A stretch of DNA of 64,000 bases from Patescibacteria group bacterium (GTDB lineage: Bacteria > Patescibacteriota > UBA1384 > DATEAH01), in the NCBI GenBank assembly GCA_035288465.1, contig DATEAH010000005.1, positions 67,636 to 131,635 on the forward strand, written 5' to 3'. Positions 7,798 through 52,931 of the stretch are shown here, in pieces (the first letter of the stretch is position 1; each line of letters opens with the position of its first letter). The notes below the pieces were generated by a model. The model worked only from the letters and a program-made list of their open reading frames with translations, was not told the DNA's origin and ran no database searches. A program made the position numbers and the translations under genes.

Positions 7798-7990
7798 TGG
7801 CTGAGCCATTTTTCGTGGCTCCGGGACAGGGATTCGAAGGGCTAAAGCCCGTCTCAACGCAGTCGTGGTATTTTTATTTCACGATTTGTGTAATAATTTC
7901 AGCATAAATAATTTTGTGGTTTGCGCAACGGGGTTCTCGCCAGATCACGGACAACTCAAAATCTTCCTATAAAACTGAAAAATTTTGAGT
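7798..7990 (-). mobile_element. putative miniature tRNA-linked element A (between tRNA-Gln and peroxiredoxin gene)
   Basis: Contains terminator-like hairpin, gaacccNNNgcg block, AT-rich block, conserved hairpin gggctttagccc (7839-7850) and a 23-nt duplicate of the tRNA-Gln 3' end (7816-7838). Confidence 0.4.
7816..7838 (-). repeat. duplicate of tRNA-Gln 3' end (T-loop to CCA), 1 mismatch
   Basis: ttcgaatccctgtcccggagcca vs tRNA tccgaatccctatcccggagcca at 7991-8013; lacks T-stem 5' strand so not a tRNA. Confidence 0.85.
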
Positions 7991-8064
7991 TGGCTCCGGG
8001 ATAGGGATTCGGACCCCAATTTTCAGGACCAAAACCTGACGTCCTGCCATTAGACGATCCCGGA
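7991..8064 (-). tRNA. tRNA-Gln (anticodon TTG), CCA encoded
   Basis: Hand-folded cloverleaf: acceptor tccggga/tcccgga, D-stem gtct/ggac, anticodon stem tcagg/cctga, loop ttTTGgt, T-arm tgggg-tccgaat-cccta. Confidence 0.85.
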
Positions 8065-8130
8065 ATCTGCTTTAATTCTATCACAAATTATGCTTATTTA
8101 AAATAAAATCACCCAATTTGGGTGATTTTG

Positions 8131-8151
8131 TATATCTTGAGTGGATAATAA
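8131..8151 (+). repeat. 21-bp direct repeat identical to rnpB 3' end (copy distal to rnpB)
   Basis: atatcttgagtggataataag identical to 9165-9185; both copies preceded by a GC hairpin plus gatttt. Confidence 0.85.
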
Positions 8152-8187
8152 GATGAATTAATAATATAATACAACCAGGAGGAAATA

Positions 8188-9108
8188 ATGAATGGACCAG
8201 AAATATTTTCGGAATCAAATGGAGAACATGATCACAACGAATTTTCTAATATTCCAATAGACCCAGAAATTTCAGAGGAAAATACTAAAGCCCGAGAACT
8301 TACAAGTTTAACGATAGACTTTTTGCATAATGCTCACATTTCTAAAGAAAAAAGAGGTAATCCAGAGCTACAAGATGCAACTTTAATGAGATTATTCCAA
8401 GACCAGTCCTGGCGTCTCAGAGTTAATAAAGCAACCCAGAAAGCAGATCAAGAGTGGCAAAAGACAGCCAAAACTTTTACAGTCGCGAGAGAGTTGTCGC
8501 GAGAAGCACCCTTTGTTACTCCGTCGTTTGCTTGTCCTTCGCCATTTGTTGAATTGTTAGCTGATTATGATCAGGGCTTAGAAATTGCTAAACTTAAAGA
8601 AAATTCACCATTGGAAAGTTGGCTAGAAGCTTATATTCGCGAAAGACCGGTTAAATTTTATAATCCTTCTCATAGTCTTGCATCTCCTGATCTTATTGCA
8701 CTTAGACGTGAAGGAAAATCGGCAGTAATAGTTGCCGTTGGCGAAGCGAAAAGAGGTTATCTCGGTGTCGGGGAAAGACCTTCTCAATCTAGGGATCGCA
8801 GAGAGGGATTGCCACAATTTAGAAAAATACTTAGAGATCTCCCTAAAAGAGTTAAACTTCTCAATTCTAATCTTTCTTCCATGAGAGAAAAAAGGCCATT
8901 TCTAAAAGAAATTGATGAATTTGCGGTTGCAGGTTTAACCGAATTGAAAAAATATTTAATAGTCCCATTTGATGTCGCTACTCCTCGTGAAGACATGAAA
9001 ATTCGAGGTCTTGAGCCTTGGGAAAGAGATGAAATGAGTTTTTCACGCCAAGAATTGGCTTACCTTTCATTGTTATTAGTGCGTCAATCAAAAATAAAAA
9101 AACAATAA
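8188..9108 (+). CDS. hypothetical protein (cargo of the segment bounded by rnpB 3' end repeats)
   Basis: 306 aa; strong aggagg RBS; no recombinase or other recognizable motifs. Confidence 0.6.
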   Translation: MNGPEIFSESNGEHDHNEFSNIPIDPEISEENTKARELTSLTIDFLHNAHISKEKRGNPELQDATLMRLFQDQSWRLRVNKATQKADQEWQKTAKTFTVARELSREAPFVTPSFACPSPFVELLADYDQGLEIAKLKENSPLESWLEAYIRERPVKFYNPSHSLASPDLIALRREGKSAVIVAVGEAKRGYLGVGERPSQSRDRREGLPQFRKILRDLPKRVKLLNSNLSSMREKRPFLKEIDEFAVAGLTELKKYLIVPFDVATPREDMKIRGLEPWERDEMSFSRQELAYLSLLLVRQSKIKKQ

Positions 9109-9126
9109 GATCTAAATCAAAAATTA

Positions 9127-9160
9127 TAATTTAAAAAATCGTCCTAAACTGGGACGATTT
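9127..9160. terminator. bidirectional rho-independent terminator
   Basis: aaaaaatcgtcctaaactgggacgattttt: hairpin flanked by A-run and T-run, between convergent ORF 8188-9108 and rnpB. Confidence 0.6.
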
Positions 9161-9164
9161 TTAA

Positions 9165-9540
9165 ATATCTTGAGTGGATAATAAGCCGAGTTTTGTTCCG
9201 CCAATTGGCGGAAGATAATCATCTATCTTTGCGGTGGGTCCCAAAATGTCCAAAACGAGCAGCTTCATTACCATATGGTGACATTTCAGTCCATTCCACC
9301 TTGCACCGGATAGGGTTTACCACTTTCCGATGTTACCATTGGAAAGAGAGGCTTCTTAGGTCCTCACTTTTCACCCTTACCACGCCTCATCGGCGGGCGG
9401 TTTAGTTTCTGTGACACTTTCCCTCGTTCGCACGGCCCTTCATCCCCAAATGTTAATCTGAAGGGTGCGGGGTATCCTGCTCTGTGGTGCTCGGACTTTC
9501 CTCTCCACCTCATCGGTGGAGCGATTATCTAATCCACTCA
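9165..9540 (-). ncRNA. rnpB: RNase P RNA (bacterial type A)
   Basis: Minus strand contains GAGGAAAGTCCGagCaCC (P4 5' strand) and ACAaAACtCGGCTTAT (P4 3' strand); P1 helix gtcttgagtggat/atccactcaaga; length about 375 nt. Confidence 0.85.
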
Positions 9541-9575: not shown

Positions 9576-12446
9576 TCAAGTATTTTTCAAGAGTTTTTTG
9601 AGGTATTGGCCGGTGTAGGATTTGGCCACTTTGGAAACCGCTTCAGGGGAACCGGTGGCTGTCACATAGCCGCCTTTTTCGCCACCTTCTGGGCCTAAAT
9701 CTATTAGCCAGTCGGCAGCTTTAATGACATCCATATTATGTTCGACGACTAAAACTGAATTTCCCATCTCCACTAAGCGATCTAAAACACCCATTAATTT
9801 GGTAATATCTTCAAAATGCAAACCAGTGGTAGGTTCGTCTAAAATATACAGGGTTGAACCGGTGGCTTTGCGCGATAATTCCGTGGCTAATTTAACCCGC
9901 TGCGCTTCCCCACCAGACAAGGTAATTGCCGATTGTCCCAAATGAATATAGCCTAAACCAACGTCGTCTAAAATTTTTAATTTTTCTCGAACTTGGGGAA
10001 TATTTTCAAAAAATCCAAGAGCCTCAACCACCGTCATTTCCAAAACATCCGCAATAGTTTTGCCTCGAAAATGGATTTCCAAAGCTTCTTTGTTGTATCT
10101 TTTGCCTTTACATTCTTCGCAGGTGATCCAAATATCGGGTAAAAAATGCATTTCAATTTTTATCTGACCTTCGCCATGGCAAGTCTCACATCTGCCGCCC
10201 TTAACATTAAAGGAAAAACGACCGGCACGATATCCTCTAAGTTTCGCTTCTGGAGTTGAGGCAAAAAGTTCGCGAATTGGTGTAAACAAACCGGTGTAGG
10301 TAGCCGGATTTGAACGAGGAGTGCGGCCAATCGGCGATTGATCAATCATAATGACTTTGTTGAGATATTCAAGGCCGCGAATTTCTTGGTGTTTGCCGGG
10401 CGCGACTCTTGAACGATGGAATTTTTTCGCCAAGGCTTTGGCTAAAATTTCACAAATCAAGGTTGATTTTCCCGATCCAGAAACGCCAGTAACACAAGTT
10501 AGTAAACCTATTGGAATTTTAACATTGATCTTTTTGAGATTAAATTCTTCGGCACCAATAATTTCCAAAAATTTATGATTAGGTTGGCGGCGTTTTTCAG
10601 GGATGGGGTTGGCTTTTTTACCAGATAAATATTGGCCAGTAATTGATTTAGGATTTTTTGAAATTTGGCTGACGGTGCCTTGAGCAATAATTTTTCCACC
10701 TAAATCGCCGGCTCCAGGTCCAATATCAAAAATATAATCGGCAGCTATTATAGTTTCCATATCATGTTCAACTACAATCACGCTATTGCCTAAATCACGC
10801 AAATCCTTGAGAGTTTTGAGCAATCTGCTGACATCGCGCTGGTGCAAACCAATCGAAGGCTCATCTAAAATATAAACGACGCCGACTAAACCAGAACCAA
10901 TTTGCGTGGCAAGCCGGATTCGCTGCGCTTCCCCACCAGCCAGAGTGGCAACATTACGATTTAAGGTTAAATAGGATAAACCGACATTTTCCAAAAATTT
11001 TAAACGCGCTTTAATTTCTTTTAATATCTGGTTGGCAATAATTTTATTTTTTTCGCTTAATTTCGCGTCAAGTTTTTTAAAAAATTCAATTAGTTTTTCG
11101 ACAGATAATTGCGCCACTTCAATAATTGATTTATCGGCCAAAGTGATAGCTAGGGCTTCGGGTTTTAAGCGCTGACCATGGCAAGTTGGACAAATTTTTT
11201 CTACCATATATTTTCTAATTTCCGAGCGAATAAAATCTGAGTCAGTTTCCATATATCGACGCTGAAGATTAGGAACAACACCTTCAAAATTTGTCACATA
11301 TTCTCGAACGGATCCGGCACCGGATGAGACTTGATAAACCTCGTTGCCGGTACCATATAAAACCAAATTCAGGGTCTTGCCGCTTAATTCTCGAACCGGG
11401 ACATTAACGGAAAATTTATGTACAACGGCGACCTTATCTAAAATTCTTTGAAACCAAGTAGAATGGGAAACAGTTCTGACCCATGGCCGAATGGCGCCCT
11501 CAGCCAAGGTTAAATTTTTGTTGGGAATTACCAAATTTGGTTCAACCTCTAATTTTGTCCCTAATCCTTGGCAATCCGGACATGCGCCATGTGGGGAATT
11601 AAAAGAAAAAAGCCGAGGCTGAATTTCTGGCAAACTAATCCCACAATCAGGACAGGCAAAATGTTCAGAAAAAATTATATCTCGGTCATTTTCAAAATCA
11701 TGAATATAAATAATGCCATCACCCAGATCTAAAGCTGTTTCCACCGATCCTGAGAGCCTGGTTTTATCTAAACCCTTAGATAACATCAAGCGGTCCACTA
11801 CGACTTCGATTGAATGTTTTTTATTTTTATCCAATTTTGGGACTTGCGATAAATCGTAAACTGATTTGTCAACCCGGACCCGCACAAAACCGGCTTTAGC
11901 AATTTCTTCAAAAACCTTTTTGTGCTCGCCTTTTTGGTCTAAAATAATCGGCGATAAAATCATCACTTTTTTTTCGGGTTTTTTAGATTTGGCAATTAAG
12001 TTGGCAATTTGTTTGACAATTTGGGTTGGGGTTTGGCTTTGTATGGGTTTGCCACAATTTGGACAATGCGGTTCGCCGATTCTGGCAAATAATAAGCGCA
12101 GATAATCATAAATTTCGGTAATGGTGCCGACCGTGGAACGAGGATTTTTAGAGGCTGATTTTTGGTCAATGGAAATAGCCGGAGACAAACCTTCAATGTA
12201 ATCCACATCTGGTTTTTCCATCACCCCTAAAAATTGTCGCGCATATGAAGATAAACTCTCGACATAACGGCGCTGGCCTTCGGCATAAATTGTATCAAAA
12301 GCTAAAGATGATTTTCCAGACCCGGATAACCCGGTAAAAACGACTAATTTATCTCTGGGAATTTCCAAACTGATATTTTTTAAATTATGTTCACGAGCAC
12401 CAATTATTTTAATTTTTCCGCCAGCAAATTTTGGAGTTTTTGGCAT
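9576..12446 (-). CDS. uvrA: excinuclease ABC subunit A
   Basis: 956 aa; two ABC ATPase modules ([18 protein letters not shown]), zinc-finger cysteines, LSGGE signature motifs. Confidence 0.97.
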
Positions 12447-12671
12447 CTTGAAGCCTTTCTATGAGTTCAAATTTATAATATTATAATAATATGTCAAAAA
12501 TATATACCAATGAACAATTATATCACGAATGTCAAGAGAATAAAAGTGTTATAAATTGCGTTTTTGAAAATTAAAATTTATTTTTTGGAATTTTTAAATC
12601 ATTTGATATATAATAGAGTTAAATTATCAGCTTTAATATAAAGAGTTTAATTAAATAGATTGGAGTCTATT

Positions 12672-13097
12672 ATGGCAATGTTCGATCAAAACAAACCGGT
12701 GACCAAGAAGGTCTCGGAAACGGTTGTCGGCGTGGATGTGAATTTAACTGGTAATTTGAAAAGTGACGGCGACATCCAAATTAACGGTAAGGTTAAAGGA
12801 GAAGTGGACACCAAAAGCGATTTATTTATTGGTGACCAAGCAGTCATTGAAGGTTCAATCAAGGGCAAAAATGTGGTTGTCACTGGACAGGTGCGTGGAA
12901 ATTTACAGGCTTTGGAAGATTTGGAAATCTCGCCGACTGGTAAAGTTTTTGGCGATTTAGTGACCAAAAATTTAATTGTGAAAAAAGGCGCTTCTTTTAC
13001 CGGCAAAAGTACGATGGGCGAAAACGGCAAAAAAGAATTAAAACCAATTTATGAATTAGAAGAACTCAAAGCTAAGGACCATATAAAGAATTCATAA
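12672..13097 (+). CDS. bactofilin (CcmA/DUF583) cytoskeletal protein
   Basis: Repetitive beta-helical sequence GNLKSDGDIQINGKVKGEV...; start taken at ATG 12672 after ggag RBS (ORF track starts at TTG 12660). Confidence 0.75.
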   Translation: MAMFDQNKPVTKKVSETVVGVDVNLTGNLKSDGDIQINGKVKGEVDTKSDLFIGDQAVIEGSIKGKNVVVTGQVRGNLQALEDLEISPTGKVFGDLVTKNLIVKKGASFTGKSTMGENGKKELKPIYELEELKAKDHIKNS

Positions 13098-14870: not shown

Positions 14871-15218
14871 ATGCCAAGAATCAAGCGCGGCGTAATGGTT
14901 CGAAAAAGACATAAAAAAATTAAAAAGCTGACCAAGGGTTACATGAAAACCCGCCAGGCTTCAATTAAAAAAGCCAAAGAGGCGGTGGTGAAGGCTGGAC
15001 AACACGCCTATCGAGATCGCCGAGGCAAGAAAAGATTAATGCGCCGACTTTGGATTAGCCAATTAAATGCCTATTTGAAAGCCAACGAGATTAGTTATTC
15101 AAAATTTATGGGTCTTTTGAAAAAGAATAAAATTGAACTTAATCGAAAAATTTTAGCCGAACTCGCCCAAAATGAATCCGGGATTCTTAAGAAAATTATT
15201 GAAGAAGTCAAAAGTTAA
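14871..15218 (+). CDS. rplT: 50S ribosomal protein L20
   Basis: MPRIKRGVMVRKRHKK...; classic infC-rpmI-rplT order. Confidence 0.95.
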   Translation: MPRIKRGVMVRKRHKKIKKLTKGYMKTRQASIKKAKEAVVKAGQHAYRDRRGKKRLMRRLWISQLNAYLKANEISYSKFMGLLKKNKIELNRKILAELAQNESGILKKIIEEVKS

Positions 15219-25094: not shown

Positions 25095-25166
25095 GGGCCT
25101 GTAGCTCAGTGGTAGAGCATCTGCCTCTTAAGCAGAGTGTCGAGGGTTCGATCCCCTCCAGGCCCT
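25095..25166 (+). tRNA. tRNA-Lys (anticodon CTT)
   Basis: acceptor gggcctg/caggccc, anticodon stem tctgc/gcaga, loop ctCTTaa, T-arm gaggg-ttcgatc-ccctc. Confidence 0.85.
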
Positions 25167-25259
25167 TTTCCGGAAAGAAAACTCTTTTGAGGTTTTTTTC
25201 GGAAAATGGCTTGTGGTGGTAAGAACCCACAGGCGATAAATAAACAATTGAGTAAAAAG

Positions 25260-25288
25260 TTGATATTTTAGCAAAGACTTAATATAAA
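25260..25288 (+). promoter_or_regulatory. sigma70-like promoter TTGATA-17-TATAAA inside element C
   Basis: ttgatattttagcaaagacttaatataaa; 30-nt block nearly identical to element B (47338-47366). Confidence 0.45.
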
Positions 25289-25323
25289 TCAAAATGTTGT
25301 TGCATCGGGACGGGGTTTACCCC

Positions 25324-25343
25324 TTCGATCCCCTCCAGGCCCT
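25324..25343 (+). repeat. exact duplicate of tRNA-Lys 3' end (T-loop to discriminator)
   Basis: ttcgatcccctccaggccct identical to 25147-25166. Confidence 0.9.
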
Positions 25344-44312: not shown

Positions 44313-44390
44313 TGGGGTGGCTGATGGGATTTGAACCCACGATTTCCAGTACCACAAACTGGCGCTTTAGACCGCTAAGCTACAGCCACC
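44313..44390 (-). tRNA. tRNA-His (anticodon GTG) with encoded G-1 and CCA
   Basis: g-gtggctg/cagccac-c-cca, anticodon stem ccagt/actgg, loop ttGTGgt. Confidence 0.85.
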
Positions 44391-44395
44391 ATATT

Positions 44396-44947
44396 TTATT
44401 TCACAATGCTGACTTCTATAGAATCGTCGAGAAAATGATGCGGATTTGAATCATATTTTTCTGATTTTCTAACTTCATTCAAATAATCTTTCATGACATG
44501 GCTTTCAGATTGGGCTCTTGAGGCTAAAATAATTGAACCTGGGTGTAATTTTTTTTCTAACATTTTTAGATATGTTGAATTTTCTTCGGGGTTAGCATCC
44601 AAAAAAACCAAATCAAATTTAATATCCATGACGGGTAAAGTTTCTAAAATATCGCCAGAAATAACCTCAACAATATGATCTAATTCGGCGGATCTAACTG
44701 TTTGCATTAATATTTGGATGGCATGAAAATTGCTCTCCGCGGCAAACAAATGACCATCTTCGGGCATTGCCGCCGCTAAAAATAAACTGGCATAGCCAAT
44801 ACCGGCGCCAATATCTAAAACATTTTTAGGTTGATTTTTTTGCACGGTTTCGCCCAAAAAGATGGCCTCTTCGCGGCTAATAATGGGAATTCTTTGCATG
44901 GCGGCTTCTTCTTCTAATTTGCTGATTAAATATTCATATGTTTGCAT
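44396..44947 (-). CDS. SAM-dependent O-methyltransferase (class I)
   Basis: VLDIGAGIGYASLFLA motif I; start at MQTYEY after AGGAGG RBS; ORF track's longer version overlaps tRNA-Arg. Confidence 0.8.
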   Translation of the reverse strand: MQTYEYLISKLEEEAAMQRIPIISREEAIFLGETVQKNQPKNVLDIGAGIGYASLFLAAAMPEDGHLFAAESNFHAIQILMQTVRSAELDHIVEVISGDILETLPVMDIKFDLVFLDANPEENSTYLKMLEKKLHPGSIILASRAQSESHVMKDYLNEVRKSEKYDSNPHHFLDDSIEVSIVK

Positions 44948-44967
44948 TTTGCCTCCTAATATTGGCT

Positions 44968-45043
44968 TGGCACCCTCGGCCAGAATCGAACTGGCAACCT
45001 CCACCTTAGAAGGGTGTTGCTCTATCCGTTGAGCTACGAGGGC
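44968..45043 (-). tRNA. tRNA-Arg (anticodon TCT), CCA encoded
   Basis: acceptor gccctcg/cgagggt (G1-U72), anticodon loop ctTCTaa, T-arm ttgcc-agttcga... Confidence 0.8.
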
Positions 45044-47282: not shown

Positions 47283-47450
47283 AGTGGGTAACGAGAGTCG
47301 AAGGGCTGAAGCCCGTCTCAACGCAATTGAATTAAAATTTATTTAATGTTTTTGCTAAAATATCACGTTGATTTTAATAAGTGACTAACGCTTCGGGTTC
47401 GACACACTTACTTATTTCTTTTTGCCGTTTTTAGACGGTACAAAGAAATA
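47283..47450 (-). mobile_element. putative miniature tRNA-linked element B (downstream of tRNA-Trp, upstream of vanX-like gene)
   Basis: Terminator-like hairpin, gaacccgaagcg block, promoter-like block, conserved hairpin gggcttcagccc, 20-nt duplicate of tRNA-Trp 3' end (47283-47302, 2 mismatches). Confidence 0.4.
47338..47366 (-). promoter_or_regulatory. sigma70-like promoter GTGATA-17-AATAAA inside element B
   Basis: Minus-strand gtgatattttagcaaaaacattaaataaa; would transcribe hairpin + tRNA-end copy + vanX-like gene. Confidence 0.4.
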
Positions 47451-47522
47451 AGCGGGTAACGGGAGTCGAACCCGTGTCTTCAGCTTGGAAAGCTGACATA
47501 ATAACCACTATACGATACCCGC
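47451..47522 (-). tRNA. tRNA-Trp (anticodon CCA), no encoded CCA end
   Basis: acceptor gcgggta/tacccgc, anticodon stem cagct/agctg, loop ttCCAag, T-arm acggg-ttcgact-cccgt. Confidence 0.85.
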
Positions 47523-52872: not shown

Positions 52873-52931
52873 CAATTTAAAAAGCGGGATACCGGGATCG
52901 AACTGGCGCCTCCACCTTACCTGCCCGCCAT
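52873..52931 (-). repeat. degenerate tandem copy of tRNA-Gly 3' half immediately downstream of tRNA-Gly
   Basis: gtggaggcgccagttcgatcccggtatcccgct vs tRNA-Gly aagaggtcgccggttcgaatccggtctaccgct; preceded by GGCGCC palindrome; cannot fold into full cloverleaf. Confidence 0.7.

Follow-up and report, generated by a model that had tools for sequence, protein, structure and literature searches.

Integrase-borne islands and prophages that reside in tRNA genes, where the T loop is one of the sublocations used, are flanked by the direct repeats attL and attR, and decayed traces of such elements occur. Integrase att sites in tRNA genes are said to be the subject of Williams (2002), and She et al. (2001) reportedly described 'gene capture' in Sulfolobus. 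The cis-mobilizable elements (CIMEs) described so far are several kilobases long and derive from identifiable integrative and conjugative elements. Partial tRNA copies are also found in Escherichia coli (NC_000913.3), where exact 19-nt copies running from T loop to CCA lie 175 nt after tyrT and, three times at 178-nt intervals, after tyrV. A small GC hairpin stands just 5' of each of these copies, the annotated RttR small RNA ends at the copy's CCA, and Rfam model RF00391 (RtT) covers the repeats with 133-137 bits. As far as we know, the origin and function of the RtT repeats have been unsettled since their first description in 1978. Here we analyse a 64-kb stretch of a Patescibacteria genome (contig DATEAH010000005.1; hereafter the window), in which three tRNA genes, tRNA-Gln(TTG), tRNA-Lys(CTT) and tRNA-Gly(TCC), are each followed by a gene-less unit of about 150 nt that ends in a copy of the tRNA's own 3' end.

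Like an attL/attR pair, each unit places a partial copy of the tRNA, from T loop to end, beyond an intact tRNA gene, and the copy is drifting; a similar repeat lies beyond rnpB, the gene for RNase P RNA. Unlike attL/attR, the interval of about 150 nt holds no gene, no integrase is found in the 84 kb that we covered (the window and 10 kb on each side), and one family occupies three tRNAs. The units also share the geometry of RtT: a T-loop-to-end copy in the same orientation, a GC hairpin 5' of it, and a region that is non-coding or nearly so. Against copies at about 175-178 nt in E. coli, the distance from tRNA end to copy end is 175 nt for Gln, 177 nt for Lys and 168 nt for Gly, and the hairpin reads GGGS-TTYA-SCCC. 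An earlier, sequence-only reading of this DNA was aware of no described system with these properties, a statement that the RtT repeats of tyrT and tyrV contradict. RtT and the window units nevertheless have no sequence or covariance-model similarity: RF00391 has no match in the window at E<=1, nor in separate scans of the Lys and Gly units at E<=10, and no other Rfam model matches the units. E. coli has tandem repeats behind one tRNA species, whereas the window has single units with another interior behind three tRNAs; and the E. coli copy pairs with an upstream complement, whereas the first bases of the window copy pair in a local, bulged hairpin.

The copies were identified by comparing the last 18-30 nt of each RNA gene with the whole window. 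A second copy of the gene's own 3' end was found for four genes (Gln, Lys-CTT, Gly-TCC and rnpB), always downstream and in the same orientation, and the 18-mers of the copied ends have no other occurrence in the window. As a control, each tRNA was locally aligned to its own 400-nt flanks and to shuffled flanks. Own-end matches scored 18, 20 and 14 for Gln, Lys and Gly, against a shuffle maximum of 10-11; they span tRNA position 53/54 to the end and occur downstream only, at these three tRNAs. The 400-nt upstream flanks contain no match to the own 3' end for any tRNA, and the remaining scores above the shuffles (Arg-TCG, Gly-CCC, Thr-CGT and Lys upstream) are matches to adjacent tRNA genes. Thus, the T-loop-to-end direct repeat of an att-type duplication is present, downstream and in the same orientation, at Gln, Lys and Gly.

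Upon close comparison with their tRNAs, the copies are identical at 20 of 21 (Gln), 20 of 20 (Lys) and 18 of 20 positions (Gly). They begin in the T loop and stop at the final gene-encoded base, which is the discriminator in Gly and Lys and the CCA in Gln. The end of the copy therefore tracks the CCA state of the gene, and the copies derive from DNA and not from mature tRNA. The T loop of Gln reads TCCGAAT in the tRNA and TTCGAAT in the copy, a difference that places the boundary between module and tRNA sequence inside the T loop, as expected of a crossover there. In the Gly copy, G71 is changed to A against C2, which would be intolerable in a working tRNA; such changes fit a displaced fragment freed from tRNA selection.

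ARAGORN finds 11 tRNA genes in the window, and Rfam finds the same 11; with rnpB this makes 12 structured-RNA genes. Rfam was run at the gathering threshold and permissively at E<=1, with a T-arm pattern scan as an extra check, and neither the permissive run nor the pattern scan revealed further RNA genes in the window. The 10 kb added on either side contain no more tRNAs and no more units. CCA is gene-encoded in four window tRNAs (Gln, His, Arg-TCT and Pro) and not in Lys, both Gly, Thr, Arg-TCG, Leu and Asp. The sequence-only reading had counted 14 structured-RNA genes, five of them with a copy of their own 3' end. The count is too high, and four of the five cases hold up, as does the statement that the other tRNAs lack a copy. 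The fifth affected gene was to be a tRNA-Trp, which none of ARAGORN, Rfam and the T-arm scan finds in the window; it was probably one of the two tRNA-Gly genes (anticodon loops TTCCCAA and TTTCCAA).

The three units have a common layout (Table 1). On the tRNA strand, the tRNA is followed by a first hairpin (hp1), a GAACCC block, an AT-rich block, a further hairpin (hp3) and the T-loop-to-end copy. A unit size of 150-170 bp had been proposed; it suits the tRNA units, whose period is 168-177 nt, and not rnpB, whose period is 1033 nt. Hairpin hp1 has 13-14 bp and starts at the first base 3' of the tRNA; its sequences are unrelated among the units and its structure is alike. The GAACCC block lies 51-57 nt 3' of the tRNA, within a second hairpin (hp2). 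Leading into the copy, a 28-nt junction block, TGCRTYGRGAC-GGGS-TTYA-SCCC-TTCGA, has three matches against 0 expected and is identical at 27 of 28 positions between the Gln and Gly units. Its 20-nt hairpin core, GACGGGSTTYASCCCTTCGA, likewise has three matches in the window with 0.00 expected by chance, so that the shared hairpin of the sequence-only reading is real in the tRNA units and absent at rnpB.

Folding of the junction block gives a hairpin of 10 bp with a bulged AC, whose 3' strand takes in the first bases of the T-loop copy. Across 10 pairs in three units, 29 of 30 cells (96.7%) are paired, and sliding the hairpin partners abolishes the pairing. Two pairs are compensatory: GGGC/GCCC becomes GGGG/CCCC, and a G-C pair becomes A-U at a tRNA-specific T-loop base. 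Because 54 of 500 shuffles reach the same level of covariation, these changes among three sequences are suggestive only. The strand preference of the hairpins is mixed across units; the sense strand is favoured for hp1 in Gln (-12.8 kcal/mol, against -6.0 antisense) and Lys, and for hp2 in Lys.

The AT-rich block, TGATATTTTAGCAAARAC, is identical at 17 of 18 positions between Lys and Gly and degenerate in Gln. It had been described as a shared promoter block, which holds for Lys and Gly and, in degenerate form only, for Gln; to judge from its letters, it reads better as an extended -10 element on the opposite strand (TTTGCTAAAAT). The same extended -10 form precedes the window's tRNA-Thr (TGCTAAAAT) and rnpB (TGGTAAAAT). 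With this opposite-strand reading available, the direction of the block is ambiguous.

We built an nhmmer profile from the module between hp2 and TTCGA (about 115 nt). It recovers the three units at E values of 1e-27 to 1e-29, all downstream of a tRNA, and detects no fourth or solo copy in the window, in the 10 kb on either side or in the loci of relatives. By sequence similarity, then, the three tRNA-linked units are homologous, even though outside three conserved blocks they are only about 60% identical. A block conserved 5' of every copy, GAGACGGG, hints at where the module came from: it equals GAcACGGG, the variable loop and 5' T-stem strand of tRNA-Gly-TCC, with an insertion of 9 nt after it. 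When that insertion (CTTCAGCCC) is allowed in the Gly copy, the similarity spans a 28-nt tRNA stretch with 25 identical positions, in which GAcACGGG, nine gap positions and TTCGACTCCCGTTACCCGCT in the tRNA align with GAGACGGGCTTCAGCCCTTCGACTCTCGTTACCCACT in the copy. The GAGACGGG block is found behind Gln and Lys too, where the T stems of the tRNAs are different (TGGGG and GAGGG). The presence of a Gly-type block there argues for transfer of the module between tRNA loci, and spread from a Gly-type site would be its simplest reading. We considered whether a unit is a whole cognate tRNA in decay and rejected this, because in their middle regions the units are no more similar to the cognate than to other tRNAs.

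Table 1. Coordinates of the three tRNA-linked units, the rnpB repeats and the pseudo-tRNA in the window.
Feature	Position	Strand	Evidence
tRNA-Gln(TTG), CCA encoded	7991..8064	-	ARAGORN, Rfam
Gln hp1, 14-bp hairpin directly 3' of tRNA, sequence unshared	7954..7990	-	folding
Gln shared module: GAACCC, AT-rich, hp3 (7834-7861)	7834..7952	-	nhmmer E=6e-29, motifs
tRNA-Gln copy, T-loop C56 to CCA, 21 nt, 1 mismatch	7816..7836	-	end search, alignment
tRNA-Lys(CTT), no CCA, last of Arg-Lys pair	25095..25166	+	ARAGORN, Rfam
Lys hp1	25167..25205	+	folding
Lys shared module: AT-rich 25261-25278, hp3 25301-25328 (compensatory GGGG/CCCC)	25205..25328	+	nhmmer, motifs
tRNA-Lys copy, T loop to discriminator, exact 20 nt, without CCA	25324..25343	+	end search, alignment
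tRNA-Gly(TCC), no CCA, last of Pro-Gly pair	47451..47522	-	ARAGORN, Rfam
Gly hp1	47413..47450	-	folding
Gly shared module: AT-rich 47348-47365, hp3 47298-47325	47298..47412	-	nhmmer, motifs
tRNA-Gly copy, T loop to discriminator, 20 nt, 2 mismatches	47283..47302	-	end search, alignment
rnpB, bacterial class A RNase P RNA, complete	9167..9540	-	Rfam 175 bits, model positions 1-367
Proximal repeat: true rnpB 3' end (core 9165-9185), terminator, beyond	9105..9193	-	alignment
Distal repeat of rnpB 3' end, terminator, ~30 nt beyond; core 8132-8152	8075..8160	-	end search, alignment
306-aa ORF (open reading frame), strong Shine-Dalgarno, between rnpB-end repeats	8188..9108	+	ORF, homology searches
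Truncated 47-nt pseudo-tRNA, between tRNA-Gly(CCC) and tRNA-Thr(CGT)	52883..52929	-	alignment

The reading that we favour, with a probability of roughly 0.4, is that the three tRNA units belong, as non-autonomous or decayed members, to a family, mobile now or in the past, whose integration at the T loop duplicates the displaced 3' end. The module would enter a tRNA gene at the T loop and bring with it a replacement segment from T loop to 3' end together with the hp1 terminator, leaving the tRNA intact. The original segment would be displaced by about 150 nt downstream and persist there as the 'copy', and the outcome would be the attL/attR geometry that site-specific integrases leave when their crossover lies in the T loop. 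The geometry of the duplication, the homology of the modules, their conserved junction hairpin and the lack of a recombinase gene are observed; this mechanism, the direction of events and past mobility are what we infer, with a recombinase that would be supplied in trans. The members are taken to be non-autonomous or decayed because the units encode nothing (no ORF lies inside the ~150-nt units). That hp1 is alike in structure and not in sequence fits a terminator of its own that each module would provide for the restored tRNA. Mobile elements targeting tRNA ends had been proposed by the sequence-only reading too. Three homologous units, all 3' of tRNAs and at the T-loop integration position, agree with that idea, whereas the rnpB and Gly-CCC cases are different kinds of event. 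Its comparison with CIMEs and miniature inverted-repeat transposable elements (MITEs) is apt in part: as in CIMEs, the repeats are att-like, an own recombinase is absent and mobilisation is presumed to occur in trans. The window units differ from both in having no identifiable parent element and no terminal inverted repeats that we could see; near-identical copies with conserved ends, as in MITEs, are not what we find, there being three copies with an unconserved hp1 end.

Several observations weigh against the integration of such a family. The copies differ from their tRNAs by 0-2 of about 20 nt and the module interiors by about 40%; copies less diverged than interiors suggest constraint and not a neutral scar. 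G-U pairs occur in every one of the three junction hairpins and would be mismatches on the opposite strand; together with the compensatory changes they favour a sense-strand RNA or single-stranded DNA structure over a double-stranded att site. Tyrosine recombinase core sites, moreover, have an inverted-repeat symmetry that is missing around the T loop at the junction of the copy. Each tRNA would need a different carried 3' end, which one family leaves unexplained. As the sequence-only reading had noted for the integrase, no integrase, transposase or recombinase Pfam domain was found in the units, the window or its 10-kb flanks; several ORFs there have no Pfam match of any kind. Among 24 contigs from different ENA, JGI and Logan samples, which are 100% identical or differ by one base from rnpB to ahpC, no presence/absence polymorphism of the units was seen (Gln/rnpB region), a check that the earlier reading had proposed. 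Public genomes, metagenomes and viral contigs yielded no unit copies beyond the same population: the hairpin motif has 59 matches in GTDB species genomes, all in GC-rich coding sequence of unrelated bacteria, a single contig of the same population in JGI metagenomes (broad pattern), and no matches in IMG/VR. We found no evidence of present activity of the family, and the proposed 'active family' is at odds with the low identity between units, the lack of solo or near-identical copies and the uniform contigs. The conserved junction hairpin and AT-rich block suggest that selection still acts on some of the module, which could be maintained as a recombination site or as a transcription or RNA signal on which the host relies.

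Conservation of the hairpin and the slight divergence of the copies speak for continuing constraint, so that functions like those of RtT or of a guide RNA stay among the candidates. It is conceivable, though we consider it doubtful, that the sense strand of a unit, as a trailer or from its own promoter, yields a small RNA composed of the hairpin and a tRNA-end tail, and to the same doubtful degree that this tail would use or compete for factors that process or bind tRNA 3' ends. The E. coli spacing, the GC hairpin 5' of each copy and the RttR end at CCA point in this direction. So do the nearly complete pairing of the junction hairpin with its two compensatory pairs, G-U pairs that are workable on the tRNA strand only, the more stable sense strand of hp1 (Gln, Lys) and hp2 (Lys), and the better conservation of copies and hairpin than of the unit remainder. 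Yet the Rfam models fail to match the units, the upstream complement to the copy seen in RtT is lacking, covariation among three sequences falls short of significance, and the hairpins' strand preference is mixed; nor would an RNA of this type explain a module behind three unrelated tRNAs, for which a mobile origin would still be required. Very improbable, in our estimate, is a homing module in which a promoter, a scaffold hairpin and an 18-21-nt match to the adjacent tRNA form an orphan or miniature delocalized CRISPR RNA (crRNA) or a transposon-end guide. CRISPR-associated transposons (CASTs) of types I-F and V-K home to tRNA-adjacent sites by means of a partial repeat and a spacer matching the homing site, and the origin of these homing guides is stated as unknown (PMC11656645). 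The likeness lies in a hairpin or partial repeat followed by a short segment that matches a tRNA-linked homing site, with different tRNAs for different members (PMC11656645). In the units, the conserved scaffold part ends in ...SCCC-TT and the tRNA-specific segment starts at C56 (CGA...), which in the tRNA is preceded by GGTT (Lys, Gly) or GGTC (Gln), and the shared module starts about 60 nt past the C56 position, beyond the locus-specific hp1. But the modules are about 110 nt long and carry neither transposon genes nor ends: cas, tnsB/tnsC/tniQ, TnpB and IscB-like domains are absent from the 84 kb, as are Tn7-like genes, a Cas effector and transposon ends, and neither Tn7-like TGT...ACA ends nor terminal inverted repeats are present in the units. 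The sequence 3' of the tRNA-matching segment is not conserved, and two mismatches in the Gly segment are hard to explain in a working guide. CASTs of type V-K are found mostly in cyanobacteria and those of type I-F mostly in proteobacteria, and we know of none in Patescibacteria. That the units are a new kind of RNA gene, a scaffold hairpin with an 18-21-nt tail mirroring the adjacent tRNA 3' end and serving as guide or tRNA-end mimic, strikes us as improbable.

Neutral local rearrangement is the remaining alternative: independent duplications or insertions with long target duplication near highly transcribed RNA genes that are today neither functional nor mobile and share AT-rich or T-loop-like blocks by convergence, the RNA genes themselves being only the neighbours of these events. 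The rnpB event fits such a history, with its direct repeat of about 90 bp at 78% identity around a single ORF, and the population is clonal, without polymorphism in the 24 contigs. The GAACCC and TTCGA similarities are T-loop-like and could be convergent, and the middle regions match the cognate tRNA at noise level. For the tRNA units we regard this explanation as unlikely: the junction block (27/28, Gln/Gly), the AT-rich block (17/18, Gly/Lys) and a hairpin core with 0.00 chance matches oppose it, nhmmer E values of <=1e-27 are incompatible with convergence, and the three units agree in layout and lengths.

Both the hairpin and the module of the tRNA units are absent at rnpB. The copied rnpB ends at 8132-8152 and 9165-9185 are identical over 21 of 21 nt, and the full direct repeat, longer than that of the sequence-only reading, extends over about 90 nt at 78% identity. 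It comprises the final 21 nt of rnpB, the terminator hairpin and about 30 nt beyond. Outside the identical 21-nt core the repeats have diverged to about 70%, and the stems of their terminator hairpins differ by compensatory changes. The insert is essentially one ORF (921 nt) on the opposite strand; its base composition is unremarkable, and the predicted -35 region of its promoter overlaps the distal repeat. The 306-aa product has no match in Pfam, PHROGs or PDB, and its sole match is itself, both in a word-indexed search of 5.8 billion sequences and in a full HMMER search of 1.84 billion representatives; a single-sequence AlphaFold (AF2) model has a pLDDT of 34 and is unusable. By eye, residues ~165-187 resemble the PD...(E)AK pattern (SPDLIAL...VAVGEAK) of PD-(D/E)xK nucleases, as a candidate only. 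Insertion with long target duplication was reportedly described by Nobusato and Kobayashi and by Furuta et al. (2010). The rnpB case, and only this one, resembles it in having a single foreign-looking gene between direct repeats of the target, tens of bp long, within the tens to hundreds of bp of that mechanism. It differs in its target, the rnpB 3' end with terminator, and in that a 21-nt part is identical and the rest only ~70% so. The case thus looks like an orphan gene that was inserted in a separate event, with a target duplication of ~90 bp.

The truncated pseudo-tRNA after tRNA-Gly(CCC) is likewise a different kind of object, outside the unit family. It lacks the D arm and the 5' half of the anticodon arm, and its 5' end is acceptor-like. 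Its 3' half best matches tRNA-Arg(TCT), with bases at 28 of 29 aligned positions and 25 identical, and the upstream gene matches worse; we therefore rejected it as an own-3'-end copy of Gly-CCC. Elsewhere among the tRNAs, an O-methyltransferase gene (44396-44947, -) lies between tRNA-Arg(TCT) and tRNA-His on the same strand (region 44313-45043), with spacers to both tRNAs of only about 6-20 nt, and is probably co-transcribed with them.

Downstream, the Gln unit is followed by a peroxiredoxin gene and the Gly unit by one for an M15 peptidase; beyond Lys no gene lies on the same strand. A tRNA-specific regulatory role for those genes is thus unlikely. The window has a G+C content of 38%; for its TypA, the closest non-self relative is 84% identical, and Candidatus Nealsonbacteria sequences are 80% identical. 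The loci of TypA homologues (84%, 80% and 80% identity) show no synteny with the window. In one of them, a Nealsonbacteria-like relative (L083, TypA 80%; 12210-12690, -), a 78-aa GIY-YIG ORF stands behind tRNA-Lys(TTT), and beyond the ORF comes an exact 17-nt copy of that tRNA from T loop to discriminator, GATTCCCACCGGACCCG. The same duplication geometry with other cargo therefore occurs in the clade, as it does at rnpB in the window, which speaks for integration at the tRNA units. In another relative (L084, 14283-14691) the same kind of GIY-YIG gene follows tRNA-Pro without a copy, and elsewhere the family is not generally tRNA-linked. Many of its members lie on very short contigs, which suggests a repeated element. 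We rejected the units as ORF-less GIY-YIG cassettes, because the leaders in L083 and L084 do not align with them; the only match is a 10-nt stretch, AACCCGAAGC, which is not significant. A link to the group I introns of Patescibacteria tRNAs was rejected, since these occupy the anticodon loop (PMC13011429).

Further candidates and resemblances came up in the comparisons. A search for phage attP sites with the three tRNA 3' ends returned phage-borne tRNA or tRNA-like genes and not att sites, and was discarded. One IMG/VR contig (IMGVR_UViG_3300037346_000270; L107 430-500, +) carries a sequence that resembles tRNA-Gly(TCC), has an aberrant D region and is not called by ARAGORN; over its final 20 nt it agrees fully with the window's tRNA-Gly(TCC). 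A RAYT-like Y1 (PF01797) transposase gene (L090 18300-19130) lies about 8 kb left of where the window begins. Inverted copies of GGGGGACGGTTCTC surround it, a single one upstream and a tandem pair downstream, like RAYT with REP. Around it are a fused LexA/S24-methyltransferase ORF, DUF433/DUF5615 toxin-antitoxin genes and many small ORFs. This neighbourhood varies by sample, L090 and L091 diverging past position 14963. A link of the units to IS200/IS605 or RAYT was rejected, as the GGGGGACGGTTCTC repeats are absent from the window. In E. coli, each RtT unit (NC_000913.3 1285800-1287800, L103) has an internal T-arm-like AAGGTTCGACTCGAG. The E. coli sequence before the copy, GCGCGCAGCGCTGAGT followed by AATCC, resembles the L083 junction, GCCGCAGGCCGAGTGA followed by GATTCC, in a GC hairpin with a GCA loop and then GAGT, which may be coincidence.

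Partial tRNA copies are a standard footprint in the finding of genomic islands. A gene-less module of ~150 nt behind three tRNAs would show either MITE-like shrinkage of T-loop-targeting elements in bacteria of the candidate phyla radiation (CPR) or footprints retained as RNA or transcription signals, and with the units the geometry of the E. coli RtT repeats is seen, independently, a second time. In Patescibacteria, software for finding islands and the annotation of tRNAs should be prepared for short false 'att' pairs of this sort. If the units were new RNA genes, a guide would mark T loops as homing sites of an RNA-guided mobile element, whereas a mimic of tRNA ends might titrate enzymes that process tRNA 3' ends or add CCA, or toxin enzymes, in a CPR bacterium with a reduced genome; either RNA reading, if true, would hint at the nature of the E. 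coli RtT repeats.

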